From: Candidatus Magasanikiibacteriota bacterium
GTDB taxonomy: Bacteria > Patescibacteriota > Patescibacteriia > Magasanikbacterales > GWA2-37-8
NCBI GenBank assembly: GCA_963802255.1
Contig: CAWDHY010000001.1
Location: 235,842 to 299,841, forward strand
Direction of reading: 5' to 3'
DNA: 64,000 bases
The notes beneath the pieces were generated by a model that did not search any database, was not told the origin of the DNA, and saw only the letters and a program-made list of their open reading frames with translations. A program made the translations under genes and the position numbers. Of the stretch, positions 4,213 to 61,095 are shown in pieces (positions within the stretch are counted from its first letter, which is position 1; each line of letters starts with the position of its first letter).

Positions 4213-5313
4213 ATGATTTTATTTGACCGCTTATCTTGGCGCGGTTTTGACTGGGCGCTGATTGTAGCCGCAGTGTTTTTGTGCGCCATCGGATTTGCCG
4301 CTATTTACAGTGTTGACTTATCACAAGGTGCTGAATTGATCTTTACCAAGAAACAATTAATTGCGTTCGGTATCGGCACAATATTAATGATGTGGGCGGC
4401 ATTTGTCGCTCATACTTTTTTTAAAGCATACGCCAAGTGGATATATCTATTTGCTGTAGTGCTGCTTGTTGCTGTATTAATTTTTGGACGTACTATCCGC
4501 GGTACGAAAGGCTGGTTTGCGTTTCCCGGATTTTCTTTACAGCCTGTGGAATTTGCAAAAATCGGATTAATTTTAATGCTGTCATATGTGACTGCGCATT
4601 TCGGACGTCGTTTTGAAAAACCGTTGTTTTTTTTGGGAACCGGAGCAATCGCACTTTTAATGATTGCATTGGTTTTGCTTCAGCCGGATTTGGGGTCAGC
4701 TATTCTGCTGGGTTTAATCTGGTTTGGCCTAATGTGGCTGGTTGGCACGCGAAAAATTTATCTGGTTTTGCTGACGCTTGCTCTTGTCTTGTTCAGTTTT
4801 GTTGCCTGGTCGTACTTGCTTGCGCCTTACCAAAAAGAACGCCTGCTAACATTTGTGGACCCAGGGCGCGATCCGCTTGGCTCGGGGTACAATACAATCC
4901 AGGCAACGATAGCTATCGGATCGGGAGGTGCTTTCGGCCGCGGTCTGGGATTTGGTTCACAAAGCCAACTGCGTTTTTTACCTGAAACGCAAACAGACTT
5001 TATTTTTTCGGTTATTGGCGAAGAACTTGGTTTCGCCGGAGTAATTGTGGTAATGTCGCTATATGGTCTCCTTTTTTACCGCTTGCTAAGCATTGCCCGT
5101 TCGACAAAAGATGATTTTGTGGCACTGACAGCCAGCGGGGCAGCCATCTTGTTTTTTTCTCAATTTTTTATTAATATCGGAGCTAACGTCGGTCTTTTGC
5201 CTGTAACCGGTGTTACCATGCCGTTTGTCAGTTATGGAGGGTCATCTCTTGTCGCCAACATGCTTTTAATAGGTGTTGTTGAAAGTTTAAATAGAAGAAC
5301 CAAATCAGTATGA
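4213..5313 (+). CDS. SEDS-family peptidoglycan glycosyltransferase (FtsW/RodA/SpoVE family)
   Basis: 366 aa polytopic membrane protein. Family-typical motifs include GSQSQLRFLPETQTDFIFSVIGEELGF and PVTGVTMPFVSYGGSSL. Confidence 0.85.
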   Translation: MILFDRLSWRGFDWALIVAAVFLCAIGFAAIYSVDLSQGAELIFTKKQLIAFGIGTILMMWAAFVAHTFFKAYAKWIYLFAVVLLVAVLIFGRTIRGTKGWFAFPGFSLQPVEFAKIGLILMLSYVTAHFGRRFEKPLFFLGTGAIALLMIALVLLQPDLGSAILLGLIWFGLMWLVGTRKIYLVLLTLALVLFSFVAWSYLLAPYQKERLLTFVDPGRDPLGSGYNTIQATIAIGSGGAFGRGLGFGSQSQLRFLPETQTDFIFSVIGEELGFAGVIVVMSLYGLLFYRLLSIARSTKDDFVALTASGAAILFFSQFFINIGANVGLLPVTGVTMPFVSYGGSSLVANMLLIGVVESLNRRTKSV

Positions 5314-6686
5314 AGAAGAAAAAAAATCGTTTGTCGCGGTATAAAAAAATTTGGCGGTTGGGTATGGAAGAATACAACACCGATCATTTTGATATCTCCA
5401 AAGATGGGGAGTTGGTTGTAAGAGAAGGAAATTTTCAATACAACATTTATGACATTGTTAAAAAGTATGGCACGCCAACCGAGATTGCTTTTCCCACTAT
5501 AATAGAAAATCGTGTGCGTGATCTGATTGAGACTTTTAACGCATATATAAAGATATTGGGTTATAAAGGAAAGTTTTTTTATCATTACGCGATGAAGGTA
5601 AATCAAAATAAGGAAGTGGTGTTGCCGGCCGTGGCAGAAGGCGCCAATTTAGAAGTGTCTTCGGCCAATGAATTATTTTTGGTAAAAAGAATTTTTGAAC
5701 AGGAAAAATTTCACGCTAAAATTCGGGTTGTCTGCAATGGGCCCAAAACAGAGAAATATATGAGTCTGATTGAGGAACTCCGGGCTAAAGGGCTGATCAT
5801 TATACCGATTATTGAAGATTACACCGAGCTTGAGCGGATGAAAAAATTTAACGGACCGGTGGGTATCCGTGTGAATTTGAATATACGGGTACAAAGCCAT
5901 TGGGATAAAAAATACAATCGTTACGGTTTTACCGAAGAAGAAATTATTAAAATCGGGCGGGTGCGTAATTTGCAGATTTTACATTATCATATCTCCAGTC
6001 AGGTGGATAAAATTGAGGGGCTGGTAAGGCCGGTGCGCCGCGCATTGGAGCTATTTGCCAAGCTGAAAGAAAAGAATATTGGTCTTGATACTTTGGATAT
6101 CGGCGGTGGCGCCGGCGTGCCATATGAAAAAAAGAAAAAATATTATACAGCTAAAAGCGTTATCAGCCATATTGTCCGAGCGGCAAAAAGACAGTGCGAG
6201 CGTTTGGGGATCAAGCATCCGAACCTGATAGTGGAGTGGGGCCGGTATGTGGTTGCGCCGGCGCAGATTACAATTTATAAAATATTAACTGAAAAGCCGA
6301 TTGAAAATAAAGCGGATACTCTCTGGTATTCAATAGACGGGTCACTGATCAACGACTTGTCGGATACCTGGGCGATCCATCAGAAATGGCATGTGGTGCC
6401 GGTCAATAATATCGCCAAATTAAAAATGAAAAAAGTTTGGATTGCCGGCTCGTCCTGTGATAGTGATGACCGCTATACCGGCGGAGATTATGTTTCGCTT
6501 CCCCGTCTGGAAGATGGCGAAGAACAGTTTATCGCTTTTTTTGACACCGGCGCTTATCAGGATCCGTTGTCATCTCATCATTGTCTTTTGTCTTCTCCTG
6601 CAAAATTGGTGGCGGCAAACGGCGAGATGAAACAAATCCGGCGCCGTGAAACGCCGGAGGAAATCGGAAAAATGTTCGGTTGGTAA
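5310..6686 (+). CDS. PLP-dependent Orn/DAP/Arg decarboxylase-family enzyme, SpeA (biosynthetic arginine decarboxylase)-like
   Basis: 458 aa. PLP-lysine motif HYAMKVNQN, as in SpeA YPIKVNQ. LDIGGGAGVPY glycine-rich loop. Late C(D/S)SDD-type motif (GSSCDSDD). The fold family is confident. The substrate is not. Confidence 0.55.
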   Translation: MKKKKNRLSRYKKIWRLGMEEYNTDHFDISKDGELVVREGNFQYNIYDIVKKYGTPTEIAFPTIIENRVRDLIETFNAYIKILGYKGKFFYHYAMKVNQNKEVVLPAVAEGANLEVSSANELFLVKRIFEQEKFHAKIRVVCNGPKTEKYMSLIEELRAKGLIIIPIIEDYTELERMKKFNGPVGIRVNLNIRVQSHWDKKYNRYGFTEEEIIKIGRVRNLQILHYHISSQVDKIEGLVRPVRRALELFAKLKEKNIGLDTLDIGGGAGVPYEKKKKYYTAKSVISHIVRAAKRQCERLGIKHPNLIVEWGRYVVAPAQITIYKILTEKPIENKADTLWYSIDGSLINDLSDTWAIHQKWHVVPVNNIAKLKMKKVWIAGSSCDSDDRYTGGDYVSLPRLEDGEEQFIAFFDTGAYQDPLSSHHCLLSSPAKLVAANGEMKQIRRRETPEEIGKMFGW

Positions 6687-9506: not shown

Positions 9507-10403
9507 ATGAATGATAAACTTTTCAACCCGGATTATCTTTACTCTCTCTGTAAAAATTACGGCCTTCAACCGTCAAAAAAATACGGTCAGAATTATTTAG
9601 TTAATCCGGAAATTTTAGAAAAAATAATTGAAGCAGGTGATTTGGGAAAAACCGACACTGTTGTGGAAGTCGGTCCCGGTTTTGGCGTGCTCACTTTTGC
9701 TTTGGCGGAACGCGTGAAACGGGTGGTGGCTTTTGAAATTGAGAAAAAAATTTTTAAATATTGGGAAGACAGAAAGCCGAAAAATTTAGAGATTATTTGG
9801 GACAATATTTTAAAGCAGGCTAAAAAATTTCCGGCCGGTGATTATAAAGTTGTTGCCAATCTGCCGTATCAAATCACTTCGGCGGTAATTCGACCTTTTT
9901 TTGAAGCAGAAAACCCGCCCGAATCGATGACACTCATGGTACAAAAAGAAGTGGCTGAAAGAATTTGTGCCAAACCAGGGGATATGTCGCTTTTATCGGT
10001 GGCTGTACAATATTATGCTGATGCTGAAATTGTGGATCATGTGGCCCGTGAGAATTTTTGGCCGGAACCGAAAGTCGATTCGGCGATAATTAAATTGTCA
10101 TTACGAAGTGACAGAGAACATACCATTGTCATTCCCGCGGAGGCGGGAATCCAATCGTGCGTCATCCCGGGCGAAGTTGCGGGATCCCCCCGAAAGAATT
10201 TTTTCCGCCTGGTTAAATCCGGTTTTGCCAGCAGGCGTAAATTATTGATTAAAAATATTCTTCCAATAATCGGCAAAAAAAATAGAGAACTTTTAAAGAA
10301 AATCTTTGCCGATATTGGCCTGAAAGAAACCGCCAGGGCCCAAGAATTATCAGTTGAACAGTGGATTCGACTGACTGAGGGCATGCGGGAATTTAGTGGT
10401 TAG
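9507..10403 (+). CDS. rsmA: 16S rRNA (adenine1518/1519-N6)-dimethyltransferase RsmA/KsgA, carrying an in-frame 21-aa insertion
   Basis: KKYGQNYLVNPEILEKI and VVEVGPGFGVLT SAM-binding motifs, and NLPYQITS catalytic motif. At 298 aa the protein is about 20 aa longer than typical KsgA. The extra segment corresponds to the hairpin repeat at 10128-10185. Confidence 0.85.
   Translation: MNDKLFNPDYLYSLCKNYGLQPSKKYGQNYLVNPEILEKIIEAGDLGKTDTVVEVGPGFGVLTFALAERVKRVVAFEIEKKIFKYWEDRKPKNLEIIWDNILKQAKKFPAGDYKVVANLPYQITSAVIRPFFEAENPPESMTLMVQKEVAERICAKPGDMSLLSVAVQYYADAEIVDHVARENFWPEPKVDSAIIKLSLRSDREHTIVIPAEAGIQSCVIPGEVAGSPRKNFFRLVKSGFASRRKLLIKNILPIIGKKNRELLKKIFADIGLKETARAQELSVEQWIRLTEGMREFSG
10128..10185. repeat. 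Tandem double-hairpin palindromic element (gtcat-tcccgc-ggag-gcggga-at ... gtcat-cccggg-cgaagtt-gcggga-t) inserted in frame within rsmA
   Basis: Two adjacent stem-loops, each starting with gtcat. They encode IVIPAEAGIQSCVIPGEVAGSP on the + strand and ...GMTHDWIPASAGMT... on the - strand. The architecture resembles the elements at 60008-60063 and 52060-52125. Confidence 0.5.
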
Positions 10404-10558: not shown

Positions 10559-11245
10559 ATGGGTTTAACACCCTGCGGTTCATCCCGCAGTGCATATATG
10601 GCTGAAGAAAATCCGCATCTGTCCAAGGAACAGAAAATCGGTTTGGTTTTACTGTCTGCTTTTGTTTTGCTGGCAGTGACTCTTGGATTAATTCAAATGC
10701 GGAATACTCTGTACAGTCCTTTTGCTTTAAATACTTCTATACCGCCGATGATCGGGCAGGAAGTAAATACTCCCGAAGCTCTTCGTTATCGCGACACGGA
10801 CATGGATGGGTTAAGCGATTATGATGAATTGTATATTTTTACCACCAGCCCATATTTAGCCGATTCGGATTCAGACGGTATCACCGATAAACAGGAAATT
10901 GATCAGGGGAAAAATCCCAATTGCGCCGAAGGGAAAAATTGTATTGGTAATGTCGGAGAAAATGCGTCTACTGTTGCCGGACAAGCCGACATACCAACAC
11001 TGTTTGATTACCGCATGCCGACAACAATTGAAGAGCTAATTTCCAGCCCGGAACAAATGCGGGAGATTCTTTTGCAGTCAGGCGTGGAACAATCGGTGGT
11101 AGACCAGATATCAGACGATGATTTAATGATAATGGCCTCGGAAATTTTTGCTTCCAGCACTATTATGGGTGATATTGTCACAGCCACAAGCACGCAAAAT
11201 ACTACGGCGACGGCTCAATTTATAAACGAGATGATGTCAGAATAG
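10559..11245 (+). CDS. Membrane-anchored secreted protein with thrombospondin-type-3-like Ca-binding Asp-rich repeats
   Basis: N-terminal TM/signal anchor (IGLVLLSAFVLLAVTLGLI). DxDxDGxxDxxE motifs (DTDMDGLSDYDE, DSDSDGITDKQE). Lies directly upstream of the giant protein gene. Confidence 0.5.
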   Translation: MGLTPCGSSRSAYMAEENPHLSKEQKIGLVLLSAFVLLAVTLGLIQMRNTLYSPFALNTSIPPMIGQEVNTPEALRYRDTDMDGLSDYDELYIFTTSPYLADSDSDGITDKQEIDQGKNPNCAEGKNCIGNVGENASTVAGQADIPTLFDYRMPTTIEELISSPEQMREILLQSGVEQSVVDQISDDDLMIMASEIFASSTIMGDIVTATSTQNTTATAQFINEMMSE

Positions 11246-41500: not shown

Positions 41501-44361
41501 ACACGGTAACTCTCACCCAAGTGATTGCCGTAACGGGAGACTTATCGGTAACGAATGGCATGCTTGGTTTGGGAGTTTCAACCGCCCATACCGCCAACGC
41601 TTTGTATTTGGGTGGAACGCATCAAGCAAATGGCACATGGGGTTCGTCCGCTTCGGTAGCGACGCATCAAAATGACACCTATTTTTCCGGCTCGGGCTAC
41701 GTAACGATAGCGACCGGCTTGACTGATTCTGAAGAAGTGGCCAATGCCAAAGCGGCCCTCTTGGCGGCTTCACCGATGACCGCGACCGAAGGGGTAGATA
41801 CAGATGCTGTCACTATGGCTCAAGCTATTGTTGACGCCGCTGCATCCGGCGTGACTGTTTCCATGAACTCATCAGCTAATGGACATGTCGATGGCACTAC
41901 CGGAGCTATTACCTATGATGCTTCGGCGGAAACTGCTAACGTAACTTTTGATCTGGACAAAGGTGTGGCAAATGACAATCAGGTTGTATCTTTTATTGTT
42001 CCGGCACACATCCTGACTGATTCTGAAGAAGTGGCCAATGCCAAAGCGGCCCTCTTGGCGGCTTCACCGATGACCGCGACCGAAGGGGTAGATACAGATG
42101 CTGTCACTATGGCTCAAGCTATTGTTGACGCCGCTGCATCCGGCGTGACTGTTTCCATGAACTCATCAGCTAATGGACATGTCGATGGCACTACCGGAGC
42201 TATTACCTATGATGCTTCGGCGGAAACTGCTAACGTAACTTTTGATCTGGACAAAGGTGTGGCAAATGACAATCAGGTTGTATCTTTTATTGTTCCGGCA
42301 CACATCCTGACTGATTCTGAAGAAGTGGCCAATGCCAAAGCGGCCCTCTTGGCGGCTTCACCGATGACCGCGACCGAAGGGGTAGATACAGATGCTGTCA
42401 CTATGGCTCAAGCTATTGTTGACGCCGCTGCATCCGGCGTGACTGTTTCCATGAACTCATCAGCTAATGGACATGTCGATGGCACTACCGGAGCTATTAC
42501 CTATGATGCTTCGGCGGAAACTGCTAACGTAACTTTTGATCTGGACAAAGGTGTGGCAAATGACAATCAGGTTGTATCTTTTATTGTTCCGGCACACATC
42601 CTGACTGATTCTGAAGAAGTGGCCAATGCCAAAGCGGCCCTCTTGGCGGCTTCACCGATGACCGCGACCGAAGGGGTAGATACAGATGCTGTCACTATGG
42701 CTCAAGCTATTGTTGACGCCGCTGCATCCGGCGTGACTGTTTCCATGAACTCATCAGCTAATGGACATGTCGATGGCACTACCGGAGCTATTACCTATGA
42801 TGCTTCGGCGGAAACTGCTAACGTAACTTTTGATCTGGACAAAGGTGTGGCAAATGACAATCAGGTTGTATCTTTTATTGTTCCGGCACACATCCTGATA
42901 ACTCCGACATTGTCTATAACAAATTCGCCGGTCACCTACAATGGGTCCTCACAAGCTGCAACCGTGGTTGGTTCAGTGGCAGGTGTTGTAAGTGATAGAA
43001 AATATGATGGTTCATCCACAGTTCCAATCAATGTCGGCACTTATGCGGTAACAGCAGACTTTGTACCGGATGACACTATAAATTATAGCAGTCTAAATGA
43101 TGCCTCGGCTGGTAATTTAACAATCAATGCTAAATCCATCACTGTTACTGCAGTTGCTAAATCCAAAGTTGTTGGCGCTTCTGACCCAACTTTGACATAT
43201 ACTTCTTCTGACGGCTCCGCGACCTTCACAGGCTCTCTTGTTCGTGCAGCAGGTGAGGCAGTCGGAACCTATACCATTAGCCAAGGCACTTTAGCCGTGG
43301 TGGGTACAAATTTTACTATTTCATCTTTTATATCAGCCAACTTTACTATTACTGACAGTGGCGGTGGTTCTTTTTCCCTTCCTTCAGCGATTGGCGACGG
43401 CTCGGCTGATTTCAGCATTCCAATGGGGGCAACGGAGAATATTGGCAATGTGGGAGGCGGTGGAATCAATCTGTTGGGATATATCAATTCTCTTGCTAAC
43501 TTTACGGCACTTGTTAGCCATAATAGATTGTTAGAACAGCACGGCTTATCGATTATTGGTTTAGATCTGTTCAGCAACATCATAACTATTCGGATAGATT
43601 CAAATTCGCAGGAATTTTCCTTGAATTTGGGAGACACGGTGAAGGTGGATTTGGACGGTGATAATACGCAGGATGTTTCCGTCAAGTTTGAAGATGTCTT
43701 TATTAATCGCGCCGAATTAACAATAAAATCTTTGCTGGATTCGGGGCAAGACTGTCCGACGCTCTCCGCAGGCGACATGGTAAAAGTTATTGGTAAGCCG
43801 GCGATTTATGCACTTAACAACGCTTTGCAGGTACTGTATTTCCCTTCAGGCGATGAATTTAAATCCTGGCGTCCGACATACGGCGGATACATCTCTATTT
43901 CGCAATCATGTTTTGACACGTTGTCCGTTCCGAGTGCCTATCCTGGCGCTGTGAACTATCGTCCGGGTTCGTATATTGTTAAGCGTCCATCTCTTGATCA
44001 GTTATATGTCGTGGAGCCGGATAACACTTTAGCTACTATTTCACCTTCCGCTGCCGCTGGTCTGTATGGCGCCAATTACACGGTTATGACTGTGGCGGAT
44101 GTGTTCTGGCCACACTATATTAATCGCGGTACGGATATTTCCACTGCTACACCTCATCCGGGCATGTTGATCAAGGTTGATGGAGTCACCTACTATGTGG
44201 AAGCGGGCAATACACTGCGCGAAGTTACGTCAGCCGGCATGACCGCCAACGGCTTCCAGACGAAGTTTGTATATACGTTATCGAATAGCGTCGTAAATGG
44301 CTGGGCAAAAGGAAATAAGCTGGAAACCTCCGAACCTGTCCTAACCAATAAGACGCAATAG
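38572..44361 (+). CDS. Giant (1929 aa) secreted cell-surface adhesin-like protein with beta-helix-type G/T/A/N-rich repeats and four identical 98-aa tandem modules
   Basis: Signal peptide (IIGSMFVLSLFIGSAPASAASR). Degenerate GxxTLxGxxT-type repeats. 4 x 98 aa perfect repeats. C-terminal ~480-aa unique domain. Confidence 0.6.
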   Translation: MLSRHLARGLTIIGSMFVLSLFIGSAPASAASRYSVANGNWNSTATWSATSGGAPGASVPVAGDTVTIEGARTVTLTANAACASITFVASATGNTLNLGTFQLDVSGAITIPRSAAVPANLIAVGAGTLNAGSITFTSAGTSVRHQLTISTGTVTVTGNITGSAGNTSPTITFTGAGTLNVGGALFAPADGTLTTFTGSTVNYNAAGAQTVQIFNYSNLTLSGSGAKTGAVTTVNGNLTLGGTATYATGAALAVGGNVNVGDGTTLTVAGFNFTVTGATNIGGGASGNLTFSSTAGTKTFTGLVTINSGATWNDSVNEAINFRGGVTNGGTFTAGTGAYTFTNNAQAINGTISIPTVTVTTITLTNNGSLTVGTALTGTGGLTNSATGVLNIGGTSTITTLTATAVGNVIDYTGASQTVKSTTYDILSFSGSGTKTLGGVVTAGNITIGAGTTLDVSGSNYALNVNGDWVNNNVFTPRSGTVTFGKSGAQSIGGTTAPAFYNLTLTGSGTKTFSAAAAIGGDLAITGTADVDLGSYTSSANTLSLGAAGQLPGSWGGTASAATYQNSTYFGTTATGILNVVTMASLATDYFRSAGTGTWDAISTWESSSDGSTNWHAATLAPSNTANTITIQNSHVVTISAAATLSIDQVVVEAGGEIDLANSAGTLTIANGAGTDLDVYGTFKNLKTTAITLTGTAVFENGSIYDHAMAAGTIPSATWVDGSTVKITGVTGSAPTATLSSIGQNFYNLTWNSPGQSWNPTTGAASALTIRGTFTFEDSGTGSYVWPSADCTVANYVQTGGIDRLSYTAARTHTVGNFSVSGGTADFTQSTGAPVVNISGDVSITGSGALIISGGGGSATVNFAGTSLQTFSSGGTISGAIGWNINSGAIVDFGTSVLSGGASSNFSVASGGSIITANTAGLTASGAAGSIQVGGTRTYSTGANYEYNGSANQVTGDGLPATVNNLVIDNSGAGGDNTVTLTQVIAVTGDLSVTNGMLGLGVSTAHTANALYLGGTHQANGTWGSSASVATHQNDTYFSGSGYVTIATGLTDSEEVANAKAALLAASPMTATEGVDTDAVTMAQAIVDAAASGVTVSMNSSANGHVDGTTGAITYDASAETANVTFDLDKGVANDNQVVSFIVPAHILTDSEEVANAKAALLAASPMTATEGVDTDAVTMAQAIVDAAASGVTVSMNSSANGHVDGTTGAITYDASAETANVTFDLDKGVANDNQVVSFIVPAHILTDSEEVANAKAALLAASPMTATEGVDTDAVTMAQAIVDAAASGVTVSMNSSANGHVDGTTGAITYDASAETANVTFDLDKGVANDNQVVSFIVPAHILTDSEEVANAKAALLAASPMTATEGVDTDAVTMAQAIVDAAASGVTVSMNSSANGHVDGTTGAITYDASAETANVTFDLDKGVANDNQVVSFIVPAHILITPTLSITNSPVTYNGSSQAATVVGSVAGVVSDRKYDGSSTVPINVGTYAVTADFVPDDTINYSSLNDASAGNLTINAKSITVTAVAKSKVVGASDPTLTYTSSDGSATFTGSLVRAAGEAVGTYTISQGTLAVVGTNFTISSFISANFTITDSGGGSFSLPSAIGDGSADFSIPMGATENIGNVGGGGINLLGYINSLANFTALVSHNRLLEQHGLSIIGLDLFSNIITIRIDSNSQEFSLNLGDTVKVDLDGDNTQDVSVKFEDVFINRAELTIKSLLDSGQDCPTLSAGDMVKVIGKPAIYALNNALQVLYFPSGDEFKSWRPTYGGYISISQSCFDTLSVPSAYPGAVNYRPGSYIVKRPSLDQLYVVEPDNTLATISPSAAAGLYGANYTVMTVADVFWPHYINRGTDISTATPHPGMLIKVDGVTYYVEAGNTLREVTSAGMTANGFQTKFVYTLSNSVVNGWAKGNKLETSEPVLTNKTQ
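41720..42895 (+). repeat. Four perfect tandem copies of a 294-bp coding repeat
   Basis: Identical copies start at 41720, 42014, 42308 and 42602. Each encodes LTDSEEVANAKAALLAASPMTATEGVDTDAVTMAQAIVDAAASGVTVSMNSSANGHVDGTTGAITYDASAETANVTFDLDKGVANDNQVVSFIVPAHI. Confidence 0.9.
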
Positions 44362-51433: not shown

Positions 51434-52030
51434 TTATTCAAGCACTTTGTCTATCAAACCATACTTCTTTGCGTCGCTGGCTGTCATAAAATTATCTCTG
51501 TCCGTATCTTTTTCCACAGTTGTTATCGGCTGACCCGTAAGCCCGGACAGTATTTTGTTTAGCCGTTCTTTCATTTTTAAGATTCTTTCAGCGTGAATTT
51601 TGATATCACTAGCCTGGCCTTCCATTCCGCCCATTACCTGGTGAATCATTATTTCCGAATTTGGTAAGGCGAATCTTTTGCCTTTTTTTCCTGCCGCCAA
51701 TAATACTGCCGCCATACTCGCCGCCATGCCGATACAAATGGTTGAAACGTCGGACTTCACATATTGGATAGTGTCATAGATAGCCATACCGGCTGTGACA
51801 GAACCACCGGGAGAATTAACATATATCTTAATGTCTTTGTCTGAGTTTTGATTATCTAAAAATAATATCTGAGCAATAATAGTGTTCGCCACGGCGTCGT
51901 CTATCGGTCCGCCTAAAAATACGATTCTGTCCTGAAGCAGACGGGAATAAATGTCATATGAGCGCTCACCAAAGTTTGTTTTTTCAACTACGATGGGAAT
52001 GAGATGTTGGGAAGAGGGATTTTTGTTCAT
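51434..52030 (-). CDS. clpP: ATP-dependent Clp protease proteolytic subunit
   Basis: 198 aa. [30 protein letters not shown] (Ser nucleophile), [13 protein letters not shown] (His), and the D of the triad in [14 protein letters not shown]. Confidence 0.9.
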
Positions 52031-52059
52031 ATATTTTGATTTTATGATTTATGTCGCGC

Positions 52060-52134
52060 GTCATGCTGAACTTGTTTCAGCATCTTTACGGCGTCCGATA
52101 GATCCTGAAACAAGTTCAGGATGACAAATGTCAT
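52060..52134. repeat. Near-perfect palindromic element in the clpP upstream region: gtcat-gctgaacttgtttcagc-atct...agat-cctgaaacaagttcagg-atgac, followed by atgacaaatgtcat
   Basis: 15-bp perfect inverted repeat ctgaacttgtttcag / ctgaaacaagttcag separated by 24 nt and flanked by gtcat/atgac. Same architecture as the insertion in the 16S gene (60008-60063). Confidence 0.55.
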
Positions 52135-52140
52135 TATATC

Positions 52141-53106
52141 TTATTTTTTGTTCAGCGTCAAAATGCGTTCAATGACCTCGTCAATCGTGCCGTCGGCGGT
52201 AAAACCGGCCGCTTTTTTATGGCCGCCGCCGCCAAATTTTTTTGCTAAAGCTGAAACATCAATGTCTTCTGCGGTAGTGCGGAAGCTGCCTTTTACTTTT
52301 CCGTCTGTCGTTTCTTTGAGAATGAGTGTAATATCCGCGCCATCAATATTATTCATAAAATTTGCCAGGCCGTCACCGTCATTTTCGGAAAGGTCCGTGT
52401 TTTGAAAATCCGAGAGTTTTAAATATGTGTAAGCCAGGTTCAACTCATCATTTTTCCGCAACCGGCTAAGAGCCGAACCCCAAAGACGCAAAATATTCAT
52501 TGATTTATCTTTTTGAGTAAAGAAGTTTATCATTTTAAAATTAGCGCCAAGACGGACAAGCTCTCCGGCAGTAGCGAGAGAGGATGGGGTGGTGGCGGAG
52601 TTTGTAAAATTATCCGTATCTGTAATCAGGCCGGTAAGAATATTCGTCGCCATATGTCGGCTGACCGGTATGCGGTTTATTTCAAAGTAGCGGTAGAGTA
52701 CTTCAGTGGTTGATGAAGCATTTGTTTTGACCAAATTGAAATGGCCGTAATTTTCATTAGTGGCATGATGGTCGATATTAATAATATACGCCGGATGGTT
52801 TTTAACTATTTTATTAATGCCGGCATACCGAAGGTCGCCTGAATCAAGCACAACAATCGTGTCGATTTTGTAATCGAAAAAGATTGATTCGTCAGTGTGA
52901 ACGAAGGGTGTGTTCGGCAAAAAATTTAATTTCTGACCAATTGGCGTTGAACAAAATATTATGCTTTCACGGCCATTTGCTATTAAATATTCGTTCAAAG
53001 CACAGGCGGAACCCAAAGCATCACCGTCCGGATTTGGGTGAGGGACGATGACCACTTTTCGGGCATTTATAAGATGATTATGGATTTGTTCGGCTTGAAT
53101 TTGCAT
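52141..53106 (-). CDS. DHH-DHHA1 family phosphoesterase (NrnA-like oligoribonuclease / pAp phosphatase)
   Basis: HPNPDGDALGS motif I. DHH motif (INIDHHATN). DHHA1 GGGGHKKAAGF. 321 aa. Confidence 0.75.
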   Translation of the reverse strand: MQIQAEQIHNHLINARKVVIVPHPNPDGDALGSACALNEYLIANGRESIIFCSTPIGQKLNFLPNTPFVHTDESIFFDYKIDTIVVLDSGDLRYAGINKIVKNHPAYIINIDHHATNENYGHFNLVKTNASSTTEVLYRYFEINRIPVSRHMATNILTGLITDTDNFTNSATTPSSLATAGELVRLGANFKMINFFTQKDKSMNILRLWGSALSRLRKNDELNLAYTYLKLSDFQNTDLSENDGDGLANFMNNIDGADITLILKETTDGKVKGSFRTTAEDIDVSALAKKFGGGGHKKAAGFTADGTIDEVIERILTLNKK

Positions 53107-58340: not shown

Positions 58341-58835
58341 GCCAAAAATTAGGTATTTTTTTATTTTTGCGGCGGTTTAGAAGAATGACTTTTACTATCC
58401 ACAGGGCGGTGGATATCGCTAGCTCTTGACAAAAAAAGGCTATTAGTGTATTTTTAACATACTAAAAATTATTGAAACGGTCTTCATCTTTCAAACCAAA
58501 AAATATTTTTTCTAAGTCCGACCGAATGTAAACCGTCTAAGGCGGTGTTCAGGCCGAGAAACTGGAAAGAGAAAAGAGCAAGTCATGTTGGCTTTCTCTT
58601 TTTTCTTTCTTATTAAAATGTTATTCATCATCCACCGATAGGCGGACCAGAATAACAAAAATAGAAAGACGAACTTTGACAACATAAGTGTGACAAAAAC
58701 CACACAAGAATCCCATCAACAGATCCGCTTTGCGGGGATGTTATGGGATATATCGTTTATTCCAAAACAATAACAACTATTATTTCTCCTTTGAAACGCT
58801 TGGCGTTTTTTGGAGAAAACTTCAAATTCTTATTA

Positions 58836-60478
<1,643 letters not shown>

Positions 60479-60681: not shown

Positions 60682-60755
60682 GGGCGGCTAGCTCAGTTGG
60701 TTAGAGCGCCACATTGACATTGTGGAGGTCACAGGTTCGATTCCTGTGTCGCCCA
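60682..60755 (+). tRNA. tRNA-Val (anticodon GAC)
   Basis: Acceptor gggcggc/gtcgccc. D-arm tagctcagttggttagagc. Anticodon arm ccaca-ttGACat-tgtgg. T-arm acaggttcgattcctgt. Discriminator a. No CCA. Confidence 0.8.
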
Positions 60756-60848
60756 CGACGCAAGCGTCGTGATTGGAACACTGGGCGTTCCACTGACATC
60801 GTGAACTTGATAATAATTTATAAAAATGCTATTATTGTTCGCGAATTA

Positions 60849-60996
60849 GGGCAATTAGCTCAGATGGTTAGAGCGCGTCACTGCTAATTGCCAGGGAGTG
60901 ATAAAATGAAAATTTATTTTCATTTTCCACGAGCGCCGCAATTATTCCGCCCGAAGGGACGCTAAGCGTTTCGAAGGGCGGTTAATGACGAGGTCA
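60849..60996 (+). pseudogene. Disrupted partial copy of tRNA-Ile: 5' half identical to the downstream tRNA-Ile, ~110-nt insert, then a taatgacgaggtc fragment, no T-arm
   Basis: gggcaattagctcagatggttagagcgcgtcactg is identical to 61021-61055. The anticodon loop is altered (ctgctaattgcc). A later ggttaatgacgaggtc matches the 3' anticodon stem. The T-arm and acceptor 3' strand are missing. Confidence 0.5.
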
Positions 60997-61020
60997 TGAA
61001 TTTACAACTTATGTAAAAAC

Positions 61021-61095
61021 GGGCAATTAGCTCAGATGGTTAGAGCGCGTCACTGATAATGACGAGGTCGGAGGTTCGATTCCTCCATTGCCCAC
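61021..61095 (+). tRNA. tRNA-Ile (anticodon GAU)
   Basis: Acceptor gggcaat/attgccc. Anticodon arm cgtca-ctGATaa-tgacg. T-arm ggaggttcgattcctcc. Discriminator a. Confidence 0.85.

Follow-up and report, generated by a model that had tools for sequence, protein, structure and literature searches.

The rsmA (ksgA) gene in the DNA of a Candidatus Magasanikiibacteriota bacterium analysed here (a 64-kb stretch of contig CAWDHY010000001.1, hereafter the window) carries an in-frame insertion of a 63-nt element in the region encoding the loop between the two domains of the RsmA protein. The segment is a two-unit cluster of the CGTC-tagged superfamily of repetitive extragenic palindromes (REPs), which includes dRS3 or the Neisseria Transformation Sequence (NTS), the Ssn-related motif (SRM), and the Rickettsia palindromic element (RPE) RPE-6. 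Very probably, this pair of hairpin repeats inserted into the inter-domain loop, is translated there, and is tolerated as a passenger. It is a known kind of element, in a lineage where none is described in the literature that we searched.

The host gene (positions 9507-10403, + strand) encodes a 298-amino-acid 16S rRNA A1518/A1519 dimethyltransferase. This open reading frame (ORF) matches the Pfam family PF00398 (RrnaAD) with an E-value of 4e-51, and its product aligns in HMMER with the Bacillus subtilis KsgA structure in the Protein Data Bank (E=1e-43) over residues 2-201 and, separately, 230-293. The residues between 201 and 230 are unaligned to solved KsgA structures. The catalytic motifs are intact, with the S-adenosylmethionine-binding residues E54, G56, G58, and G60 and the N118-L-P-Y121 motif invariant in the ortholog alignment. 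Synteny with the upstream Sua5 and DUF4015 genes is kept across the compared loci, indicating that the RsmA genes examined are true orthologs. These proteins range from 270 to 376 amino acids in length. Those homologues that carry names place the source genome near Candidatus Magasanikbacteria.

Comparison with orthologs that have an empty site establishes the insertion. From the conserved residues VDSAII to FF.LVK there are 27 residues in the nearest empty-site orthologs, P0002 (locus L002; 69% identical to the window RsmA) and the protein of locus L009 (67% identical), versus 48 in the window RsmA. The gain is exactly 21 codons, in frame, as the first-pass annotation of this DNA had proposed when it spoke of about 21 added amino acids. 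When residues V208-P228 (VIPAEAGIQSCVIPGEVAGSP) are removed, the remaining linker of 12+3 residues equals the 15 residues of the empty sites. As element, the insert spans positions 10127-10189 (+ strand), and as codons V208-P228 it spans 10128-10190. Its G+C content is 64% compared to 40% in the remainder of rsmA.

Structurally, the insert lies in the linker joining the Rossmann methyltransferase domain to the C-terminal helical domain of RsmA. An AlphaFold2 model of the window protein, made with 35 orthologs as input, has a mean predicted local distance difference test (pLDDT) score of 88.8 and a predicted template modelling (pTM) score of 0.86. The pLDDT falls below 50 solely at residues 205-225, between a strand (192-199) and a helix (228-239). 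The earlier expectation that an ortholog alignment would place the extra residues in a surface loop is thus borne out, since the 21 residues absent from P0002 and L009 fall in the inter-domain linker and coincide with the sole segment of low confidence. The model, together with the intact motifs, suggests that RsmA tolerates a disordered surface loop of 21 residues at this position. We infer, rather than observe directly, that the insert is translated, is harmless, and has the status of a passenger.

The two units of the element are arranged head to tail, and GTCAT precedes each of the two hairpins. Unit 1 (TGTCATTCCCGCGGAGGCGGGAATCCAA; positions 10127-10154, + strand) is of the NTS/dRS3/CGTC-1 type. 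It consists of a TGTC tag (10127-10130), a stem of eight perfect base pairs formed by ATTCCCGC (10131-10138) and GCGGGAAT (10143-10150) around the loop GGAG (10139-10142), and a CCA tail (10151-10153). Unit 2 (positions 10160-10189, + strand) is a degenerate CGTC-tagged unit with a CGTC tag (10160-10163), a stem of six perfect base pairs (ATCCCG at 10164-10169 and CGGGAT at 10180-10185), a 10-nt loop (GGCGAAGTTG), and a CCCC tail. The two GTCAT stem-loops had been noticed inside rsmA beforehand; direct reading and a repeat search agree on both, with slightly wider bounds that give the full 63 nt.

These features place the element in a published class of repeats. In REPs of the CGTC-tagged class, the hairpin bears an unpaired tag, CGTC (often TGTC, with CCTC also accepted), its stem starts with A-T, and a CCA tail follows (Di Nocera, De Gregorio and Rocco 2013, PMC3733652). 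Both tags in the window, TGTC and CGTC, are of this form. Within the class, the CGTC-1 family has an 8-bp stem and a 4-nt loop and is equated with the Neisseria dRS3 and with RPE-6 of Rickettsia conorii (PMC3733652). Unit 1 exhibits all of the CGTC-1 features, namely the TGTC tag, the 8-bp AT-starting stem, the 4-nt loop, and the CCA tail. The NTS is a 28-nt consensus sequence, CGTCATTCCCGCGMAVGCGGGAATCYRG, which was described together with the degenerate SRM (Chenal et al. 2025, PMC11893778). Unit 1 matches this consensus, which derives from an unrelated phylum (that of Neisseria), at 25 of 28 positions. It is the sole match in the window when up to three mismatches are allowed, and none of 100 shuffled sequences contains one. 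The SRM pattern HGTCWYN(0-2)YYVSBRHN(0-5)WNVSBRGN(0-2)RNCYNB has a single match in the window, namely unit 2, where 0.15 matches are expected. More generally, YGTCAT followed by a perfect hairpin occurs five times in the window compared to an expectation of 0.26.

Similar units are present in viral and prophage contigs of the IMG/VR collection. In 162 NTS-type units among the matches listed, GTC is preceded by C or T in 96% of cases, and the variants GGAG in the loop (n=8) and AA in the tail (n=10) occur as minorities. Each hairpin family is found in more than 100 such contigs, with the count for the NTS type being a lower bound. A few contigs carry five to seven copies, and an Ssn-like GIY-YIG gene is found in just four of 237 loci among the matches listed.

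The explanation that the segment is an ordinary lineage-specific linker, palindromic by chance, or else an assembly artefact, is effectively refuted by these results. Inter-domain linkers do vary in length in many protein families, and just one copy of the exact sequence is present in the window. However, neither chance nor misassembly accounts for the match to a consensus from an unrelated phylum with no equivalent in shuffled sequences, for the jump in G+C content at the insert, for the in-frame insert being present in two independent assemblies, or for the presence of the same superfamily of tagged hairpins at this site in other orthologs.

Other identities and roles that were considered for the segment do not fit. 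An element of the MITE type (miniature inverted-repeat transposable elements) should have 15-30 bp inverted repeats at its termini and a duplicated target site, whereas the outer complementarity here is merely 6 nt (TCCCGC/GCGGGA), there are no terminal inverted repeats, and the flanks ACCAT| and |CGAAAG carry no duplication. A 9-nt direct repeat, ATTGTCATT, at positions 10094 and 10125 was rejected as a target-site duplication, as the head of the element itself supplies seven of the nine bases and the repeat is not significant. A GTAG REP or REPIN (REP doublet) identity does not apply, as the tags are TGTC and CGTC rather than GTAG. A role in transcription termination was likewise rejected, as there is no T run beside either stem and no terminator-like site at this position. 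Two other hairpins in the window that share ATCCCG stems (positions 837 and 19679) are ordinary bidirectional terminators with A and T runs and are unrelated to the insert.

A further hairpin, TGTCATT/ACGA/AGTGACA, lies upstream of unit 1 at positions 10096-10113 (+ strand), over codons L197-S201 (KLSLRS), and is predicted in both DNA and RNA folds. Its status is uncertain. It may be native, or it may be the remnant head of an older TGTCATTGCGAG-type unit. Its counterpart is TTGTCATTGCGAGAGCGC in locus L001, and in locus L007 a full TGTCATTGCGAGCCCCC... unit starts from the same codons. We considered counting it as a third unit of the insert, and the match in length to the empty sites (12+3 = 15 native residues) favours a native origin.

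In the explanation that we favour, a two-unit repeat cluster would have landed in the loop joining the RsmA domains. Unit 1 is free of stop codons in five of its six reading frames, and the complete insert forms 21 codons without a stop. With a length that is a multiple of three and with open frames, the element would simply be translated as a 21-residue loop. It would most likely be a selfish or neutral passenger and not a functional part of RsmA. Presumably, the element spreads at a single-stranded DNA stage in a manner that depends on its hairpins. We take this as the most likely route. Ssn, the only enzyme known to recognise the motif, binds the single-stranded hairpin. The small GIY-YIG nucleases Ssn and SsnA bind and cut the NTS/SRM hairpin in single-stranded DNA (PMC11893778). 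The cognate ssn genes encode single-domain GIY-YIG proteins (cd10448) and are often flanked by the motif, and 19% of the SRM-rich genomes lack ssn (PMC11893778). The resemblance of the NTS-ssnA-NTS layout to an insertion sequence has been remarked on, with mobilisation not demonstrated (PMC11893778), and no dedicated transposase has been found for CGTC elements (PMC3733652).

The history of the insert was examined through its occurrence and conservation among orthologs. Apart from the window RsmA, a single ortholog, P0003 (locus L001), has the same two-unit insert in the same position. Orthologs encoding the same 21 residues from DNA with no palindromic signature would have spoken against the first-pass annotation; the P0003 DNA is instead still recognisably palindromic, although partly decayed. 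There, the loop of hairpin 1 is 12 nt longer, and the 3ˊ arm of hairpin 2 has decayed through uncompensated changes. The window and L001 inserts are 81% identical in nucleotide sequence. At third codon positions they agree in 19 of 21 cases (0.90), versus about 0.50 in the rest of the gene (binomial p=1e-4, for a comparison of 21 codons that was chosen post hoc), and the maximum for a sliding window elsewhere in the gene is 0.73. Amino-acid identity in the insert is only 0.62, a combination not expected of coding sequence as old as its host gene. The conservation of silent sites implies that the insert is younger than the split of the two genes or that its DNA has been held similar, and it hints at repeats that are still on the move.

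The distribution of the insert on the RsmA tree is patchy. P0003 groups with P0011, P0014, and P0015, all four of which have an N-terminal insert of 18 amino acids in common, and the linker insert is absent from the latter three. The window RsmA groups with the insert-free P0002. An alternative history is a single ancient insertion followed by vertical descent and several precise losses, with the element long dead. We consider this improbable, although it retains an appreciable chance. The units, the spacer, and the position are the same in the window and in L001, the junction between the two units was not found elsewhere in a hairpin context among the metagenome contigs scanned, and resolution of the RsmA tree is weak (pairwise identities are all 70-73%). 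However, a neutral relic of equal age should have diverged at least as much as the synonymous sites of the flanking gene, which are only about 50-60% identical between the window and L001, whereas the insert is far better conserved. In addition, the absence of the insert from P0002, P0011, P0014, and P0015 would require several exact deletions of 63 nt. Recent or repeated acquisition, or exchange by recombination, is therefore favoured over one ancient gain with several exact losses, and the behaviour of the insert at the DNA level speaks for repeat activity that is recent or still under way in this lineage.

Several observations weigh against the interpretation of the segment as a mobile repeat cluster carried as a passenger. 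In addition to the post hoc choice of the third-position comparison, empty and filled alleles were not seen within one species, so mobility of the element is inferred and not observed. Unit 2 departs from the CGTC-1 stem format, with its 6-bp stem, 10-nt loop, and CCCC tail, and unit 1 misses the SRM pattern at one position (G as the first loop base). Head-to-tail order is negligible for CGTC elements outside of clustered arrays (PMC3733652). There is a single NTS-type unit in 64 kb, and thus the genome represented by the window is not repeat-rich in the manner of Neisseria or Rickettsia. Furthermore, motif, tblastn, and profile searches revealed no Ssn-like GIY-YIG gene in the window, which covers approximately 10% of the source genome. 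With a GIY-YIG profile made from 120 homologues, there was likewise no match in the window or in approximately 310 kb of related Patescibacteria loci (best E-value 2.2). This weakens the NTS/SRM assignment without overturning it.

Searches for further copies were similarly sparse. The first-pass annotation had suggested looking for further copies across the complete genome; within the window, gtcattcccgcg has no second copy, and the other tagged hairpins there belong to a different stem family. No further copies of GTCATTCCCGCG are present in the window, and matches to it with two mismatches are at the level expected by chance. The junction of unit 1 and unit 2 (GGGAATCCNNTCGNGCNTCATCCC) has one match in metagenome contigs, which lacks the hairpin context; this collection is incomplete, as L001, which fits, was not recovered from it. 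When the doubled insert peptide was searched against proteins, no match was significant; this result carries no weight, as even the query's own protein was not recovered.

Evidence for the repeat origin also comes from the same linker in other proteins. In an alignment of the 120 best Patescibacteria RsmA homologues, about 30 have extra residues in this inter-domain linker. The peptides resemble translated G+C-rich hairpin repeats and include VIPAQAGIQ, LSLRGAKRRGNP, VIARS..TKQS, and CHSERSEES. Three more stretches of the alignment gather repeat-like inserts, located after residues ~32-36, 88-91, and 104-109 of P0002, and the 346-amino-acid protein P0024 has inserts at three places. Where the linker was read as DNA, TGTC-tagged hairpins were found at all four of the other insert-bearing loci (L001, L004, L005, and L007). 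The L004 linker carries TGTCATTCCCGCGCAGGCGGGAATCCAG, which matches the NTS consensus at 27 of 28 positions, and the L005 and L007 linkers carry doublets of other stem families with their tags pointing outward. NTS-type units are present in the related loci L004, L005, and L007. Proteins decorated with repeats thus form a wider pattern in this group, of which the rsmA insert is one case, as is known for Rickettsia and others.

A separate observation concerns a second protein gene of locus L005 (993-2444), which encodes a membrane protein of the Wzy_C family. An NTS-type doublet at 1876-1949, consisting of CGTCATTCCCGCCGCAAGCGGGAATCCAG and an inverted partner, is translated in frame as ...SFPPQAGIQAIGSDTRFPLAAGMT....

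Two additional members of the superfamily are present in the window. They are CGTC-2-like doublets with outward tags, 8-bp stems of the form ATSCTGAA, and 5-nt loops, and each folds as one long hairpin. The first (positions 52059-52126, no strand assigned) is an intergenic heterodimer with stems ATGCTGAA/ATCCTGAA and the loop CTTGT, located between the ORFs at 51434-52030 (-) and 52141-53106 (-). A near-identical doublet is found at a non-syntenic site in locus L007 (20189-20252), whose RsmA is only ~67% identical to that of the window, which suggests that the doublet is mobile in the manner of REPINs.

The second doublet (TGTCATCCTGAATATATTTCAGGATCTAGATGCTGAAACTAGTTCAGTATGACA; positions 60009-60062, no strand assigned) is of the same CGTC-2-like family and is located within the 16S rRNA gene. 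This gene (Rfam SSU match at 58829-60477) is 1649 nt long compared to the 1533 positions of the model. An insert of 79 nt (~59997-60075), composed mainly of the doublet, takes the place of the 4-nt loop ([79] for [4]) in a hairpin at Rfam model positions ~1149-1170, which we take to be helix 40. The insert is predicted to fold as one long stem (-64.3 kcal/mol, z=-7.6). The occurrence of different repeat families in the same RsmA linker, in three other stretches of RsmA, and as a doublet at the tip of a 16S rRNA helix suggests that selection decides where insertions survive.

The rRNA gene is followed at 60682-61095 by genes for tRNA-Val(GAC) and tRNA-Ile(GAT). A weak third tRNA-like Rfam match at 60849-60929 is not called by ARAGORN. 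In the 3 kb of the window that remain, nothing matches 23S rRNA at the Rfam threshold.

Alternatively, the insert might have been co-opted for function, whereby a longer linker adapts RsmA to an unusual ribosome, or hairpins in the mRNA between the domains delay translation so that each domain folds in turn, or make the transcript more stable. The insert lies exactly at the domain boundary, and the organism's 16S rRNA, the substrate of RsmA, is itself expanded. In the window, hairpin 1 has stayed perfect despite divergence of the host gene to ~72% identity, the silent sites of the insert are unusually conserved, and some form of insert is present at this place in many orthologs. Nevertheless, we regard co-option as quite unlikely. 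The closest orthologs are insert-free, and L001 keeps neither structure, with hairpin 2 broken and loop 1 extended by 12 nt. Amino-acid identity between the window and L001 is lower in the insert (0.62) than in the N-terminal domain (0.77). The inserts of other orthologs come from unrelated repeat families and have no common peptide or length, and the fold z-scores of the insert region are modest (-2.4 as DNA and -1.6 as RNA). Thus, a translated passenger of repeat origin remains the preferred explanation.

A broader proposal is that Patescibacteria host active CGTC/SRM repeats that are shared across phyla and repeatedly enter the same permissive sites of essential translation genes, including the four RsmA stretches and the tip of the 16S rRNA helix. 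We advance this generalisation as a speculative one that is probably incorrect in its full form. If true, such repeats would be a general source of expansion segments for protein loops and rRNAs in reduced genomes, and they could spread without a resident Ssn, hence via a copying route that is not yet described. On this view, the last beta-strand ends in conserved TTGTCATT codons that could serve repeats as a preferred site of landing or priming.

A positive control for the searches came from a Margulisiibacteriota contig (JBHPKE010000001.1, locus L022). Within the region 4460-5350, a gene for a 97-amino-acid GIY-YIG protein is located between the ATP synthase beta and epsilon genes. Upstream of it is an array with at least four NTS-type units of the form TGTCATTCCCGCGAA(A/G)GCGGGAATCCAGG, which alternate with TGTCATCCCGGC...GCCGGGATCC units resembling unit 2, and downstream of it is one inverted NTS unit. 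The flanking units (TGTCATTCCCGCGAAGGCGGGAATCCAGG) are near-identical to unit 1. This locus is the published NTS-ssn-NTS layout in yet another phylum.

Several known systems resemble the rsmA insert to differing degrees. Ogata and colleagues are said to have described, in 2000 and 2002, Rickettsia palindromic elements that lie in frame in functional genes at positions compatible with the protein fold. The classical RPE-1, at ~100-150 bp, is much longer than the rsmA insert, and Rickettsia species have dozens of such inserts per genome. The rsmA case is similar in that the insert is in frame, the host gene is intact, and the position is structurally permissive, and it differs in that one protein gene and one rRNA gene are affected in 64 kb. 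The first-pass annotation had been reminded of these elements, and the analogy holds up well: through the reported equivalence of CGTC-1, dRS3, and RPE-6 it appears to be near-literal for the short RPEs, with the link to RPE-6 resting on that published statement (PMC3733652) and not on a comparison of consensus sequences.

With the CGTC-1 REPs, the insert has in common not only the architecture of unit 1 (C/TGTC tag, 8-bp AT stem, 4-nt loop, and CCA tail) but also the occurrence within ORFs, where dimers or groups of such elements encode 20-30 amino acids, with no dedicated transposase known (PMC3733652). It differs in its host phylum, as Patescibacteria are outside of the five phyla reported, and in the low density of NTS-type units, the head-to-tail order, and the degenerate second unit; also, rsmA is not named as a host gene in the main text of that study (PMC3733652). 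Similarly, unit 1 resembles the NTS and unit 2 fits the SRM pattern, but no ssn-like gene is present in the window or in the ~310 kb of related loci, and the element is located within a coding sequence, whereas the main text of the NTS study does not contain the word 'intragenic' (PMC11893778). GTAG REPs and REPINs are also short G+C-rich hairpins with an unpaired tetranucleotide tag, and their doublets can form a single long hairpin, like the doublets at 52059-52126 and 60009-60062. However, CGTC elements have no known association with RAYT (REP-associated tyrosine transposase), a Y1 transposase of the IS200/IS605 type (PMC3733652). The 16S rRNA doublet resembles rRNA intervening sequences and the rRNA insertions of candidate-phyla-radiation bacteria in that it adds sequence to a helix tip and forms a long stem, and differs in being 79 nt long and built from a REP doublet. 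Insertions in the rRNAs of the candidate phyla radiation were reportedly described by Brown and colleagues in 2015 as being, for the most part, hundreds of bases in length, and homing endonucleases are often encoded in them.

Full-text literature searches linking candidate-phyla-radiation bacteria to such repeats gave nothing relevant. The finding reveals no new mechanism; what it adds is the candidate phyla radiation as a host group for an established class of hairpin repeats, which comprises dRS3/NTS, the CGTC REPs, and the short RPEs of Rickettsia. These repeats explain part of the variation in protein length in small genomes, as seen in the range of RsmA sizes. Odd peptides such as VIPAxAGIQ, CHSERSEES, and LSLRGAKRRSNP can be recognised as repeats that have been translated, a help in annotation and in the masking of alignments. 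The recurrent linker inserts and the 16S rRNA doublet also constitute a natural experiment on the sites of a protein and an rRNA that tolerate insertion. The parts most worth following are the linker hotspot, the silent-site signal, and the doublet in 16S rRNA.

Two other features of the window were noted. A tandem array at 41720-42898 consists of 4.0 copies of a 294-nt unit (a period divisible by three, which would correspond to 98 codons) with 100% identity and no indels, which suggests either very recent amplification or collapse of the assembly. Downstream of rsmA, the hairpin CTGCGG-TTCATC-CCGCAG (10559-10600), flanked by TATATATGG and CATATATGG, is located just past the first ATG of the ORF at 10559-11245. 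This hairpin may be a regulatory structure, or the true start codon of the ORF may be the ATG at 10598-10600.

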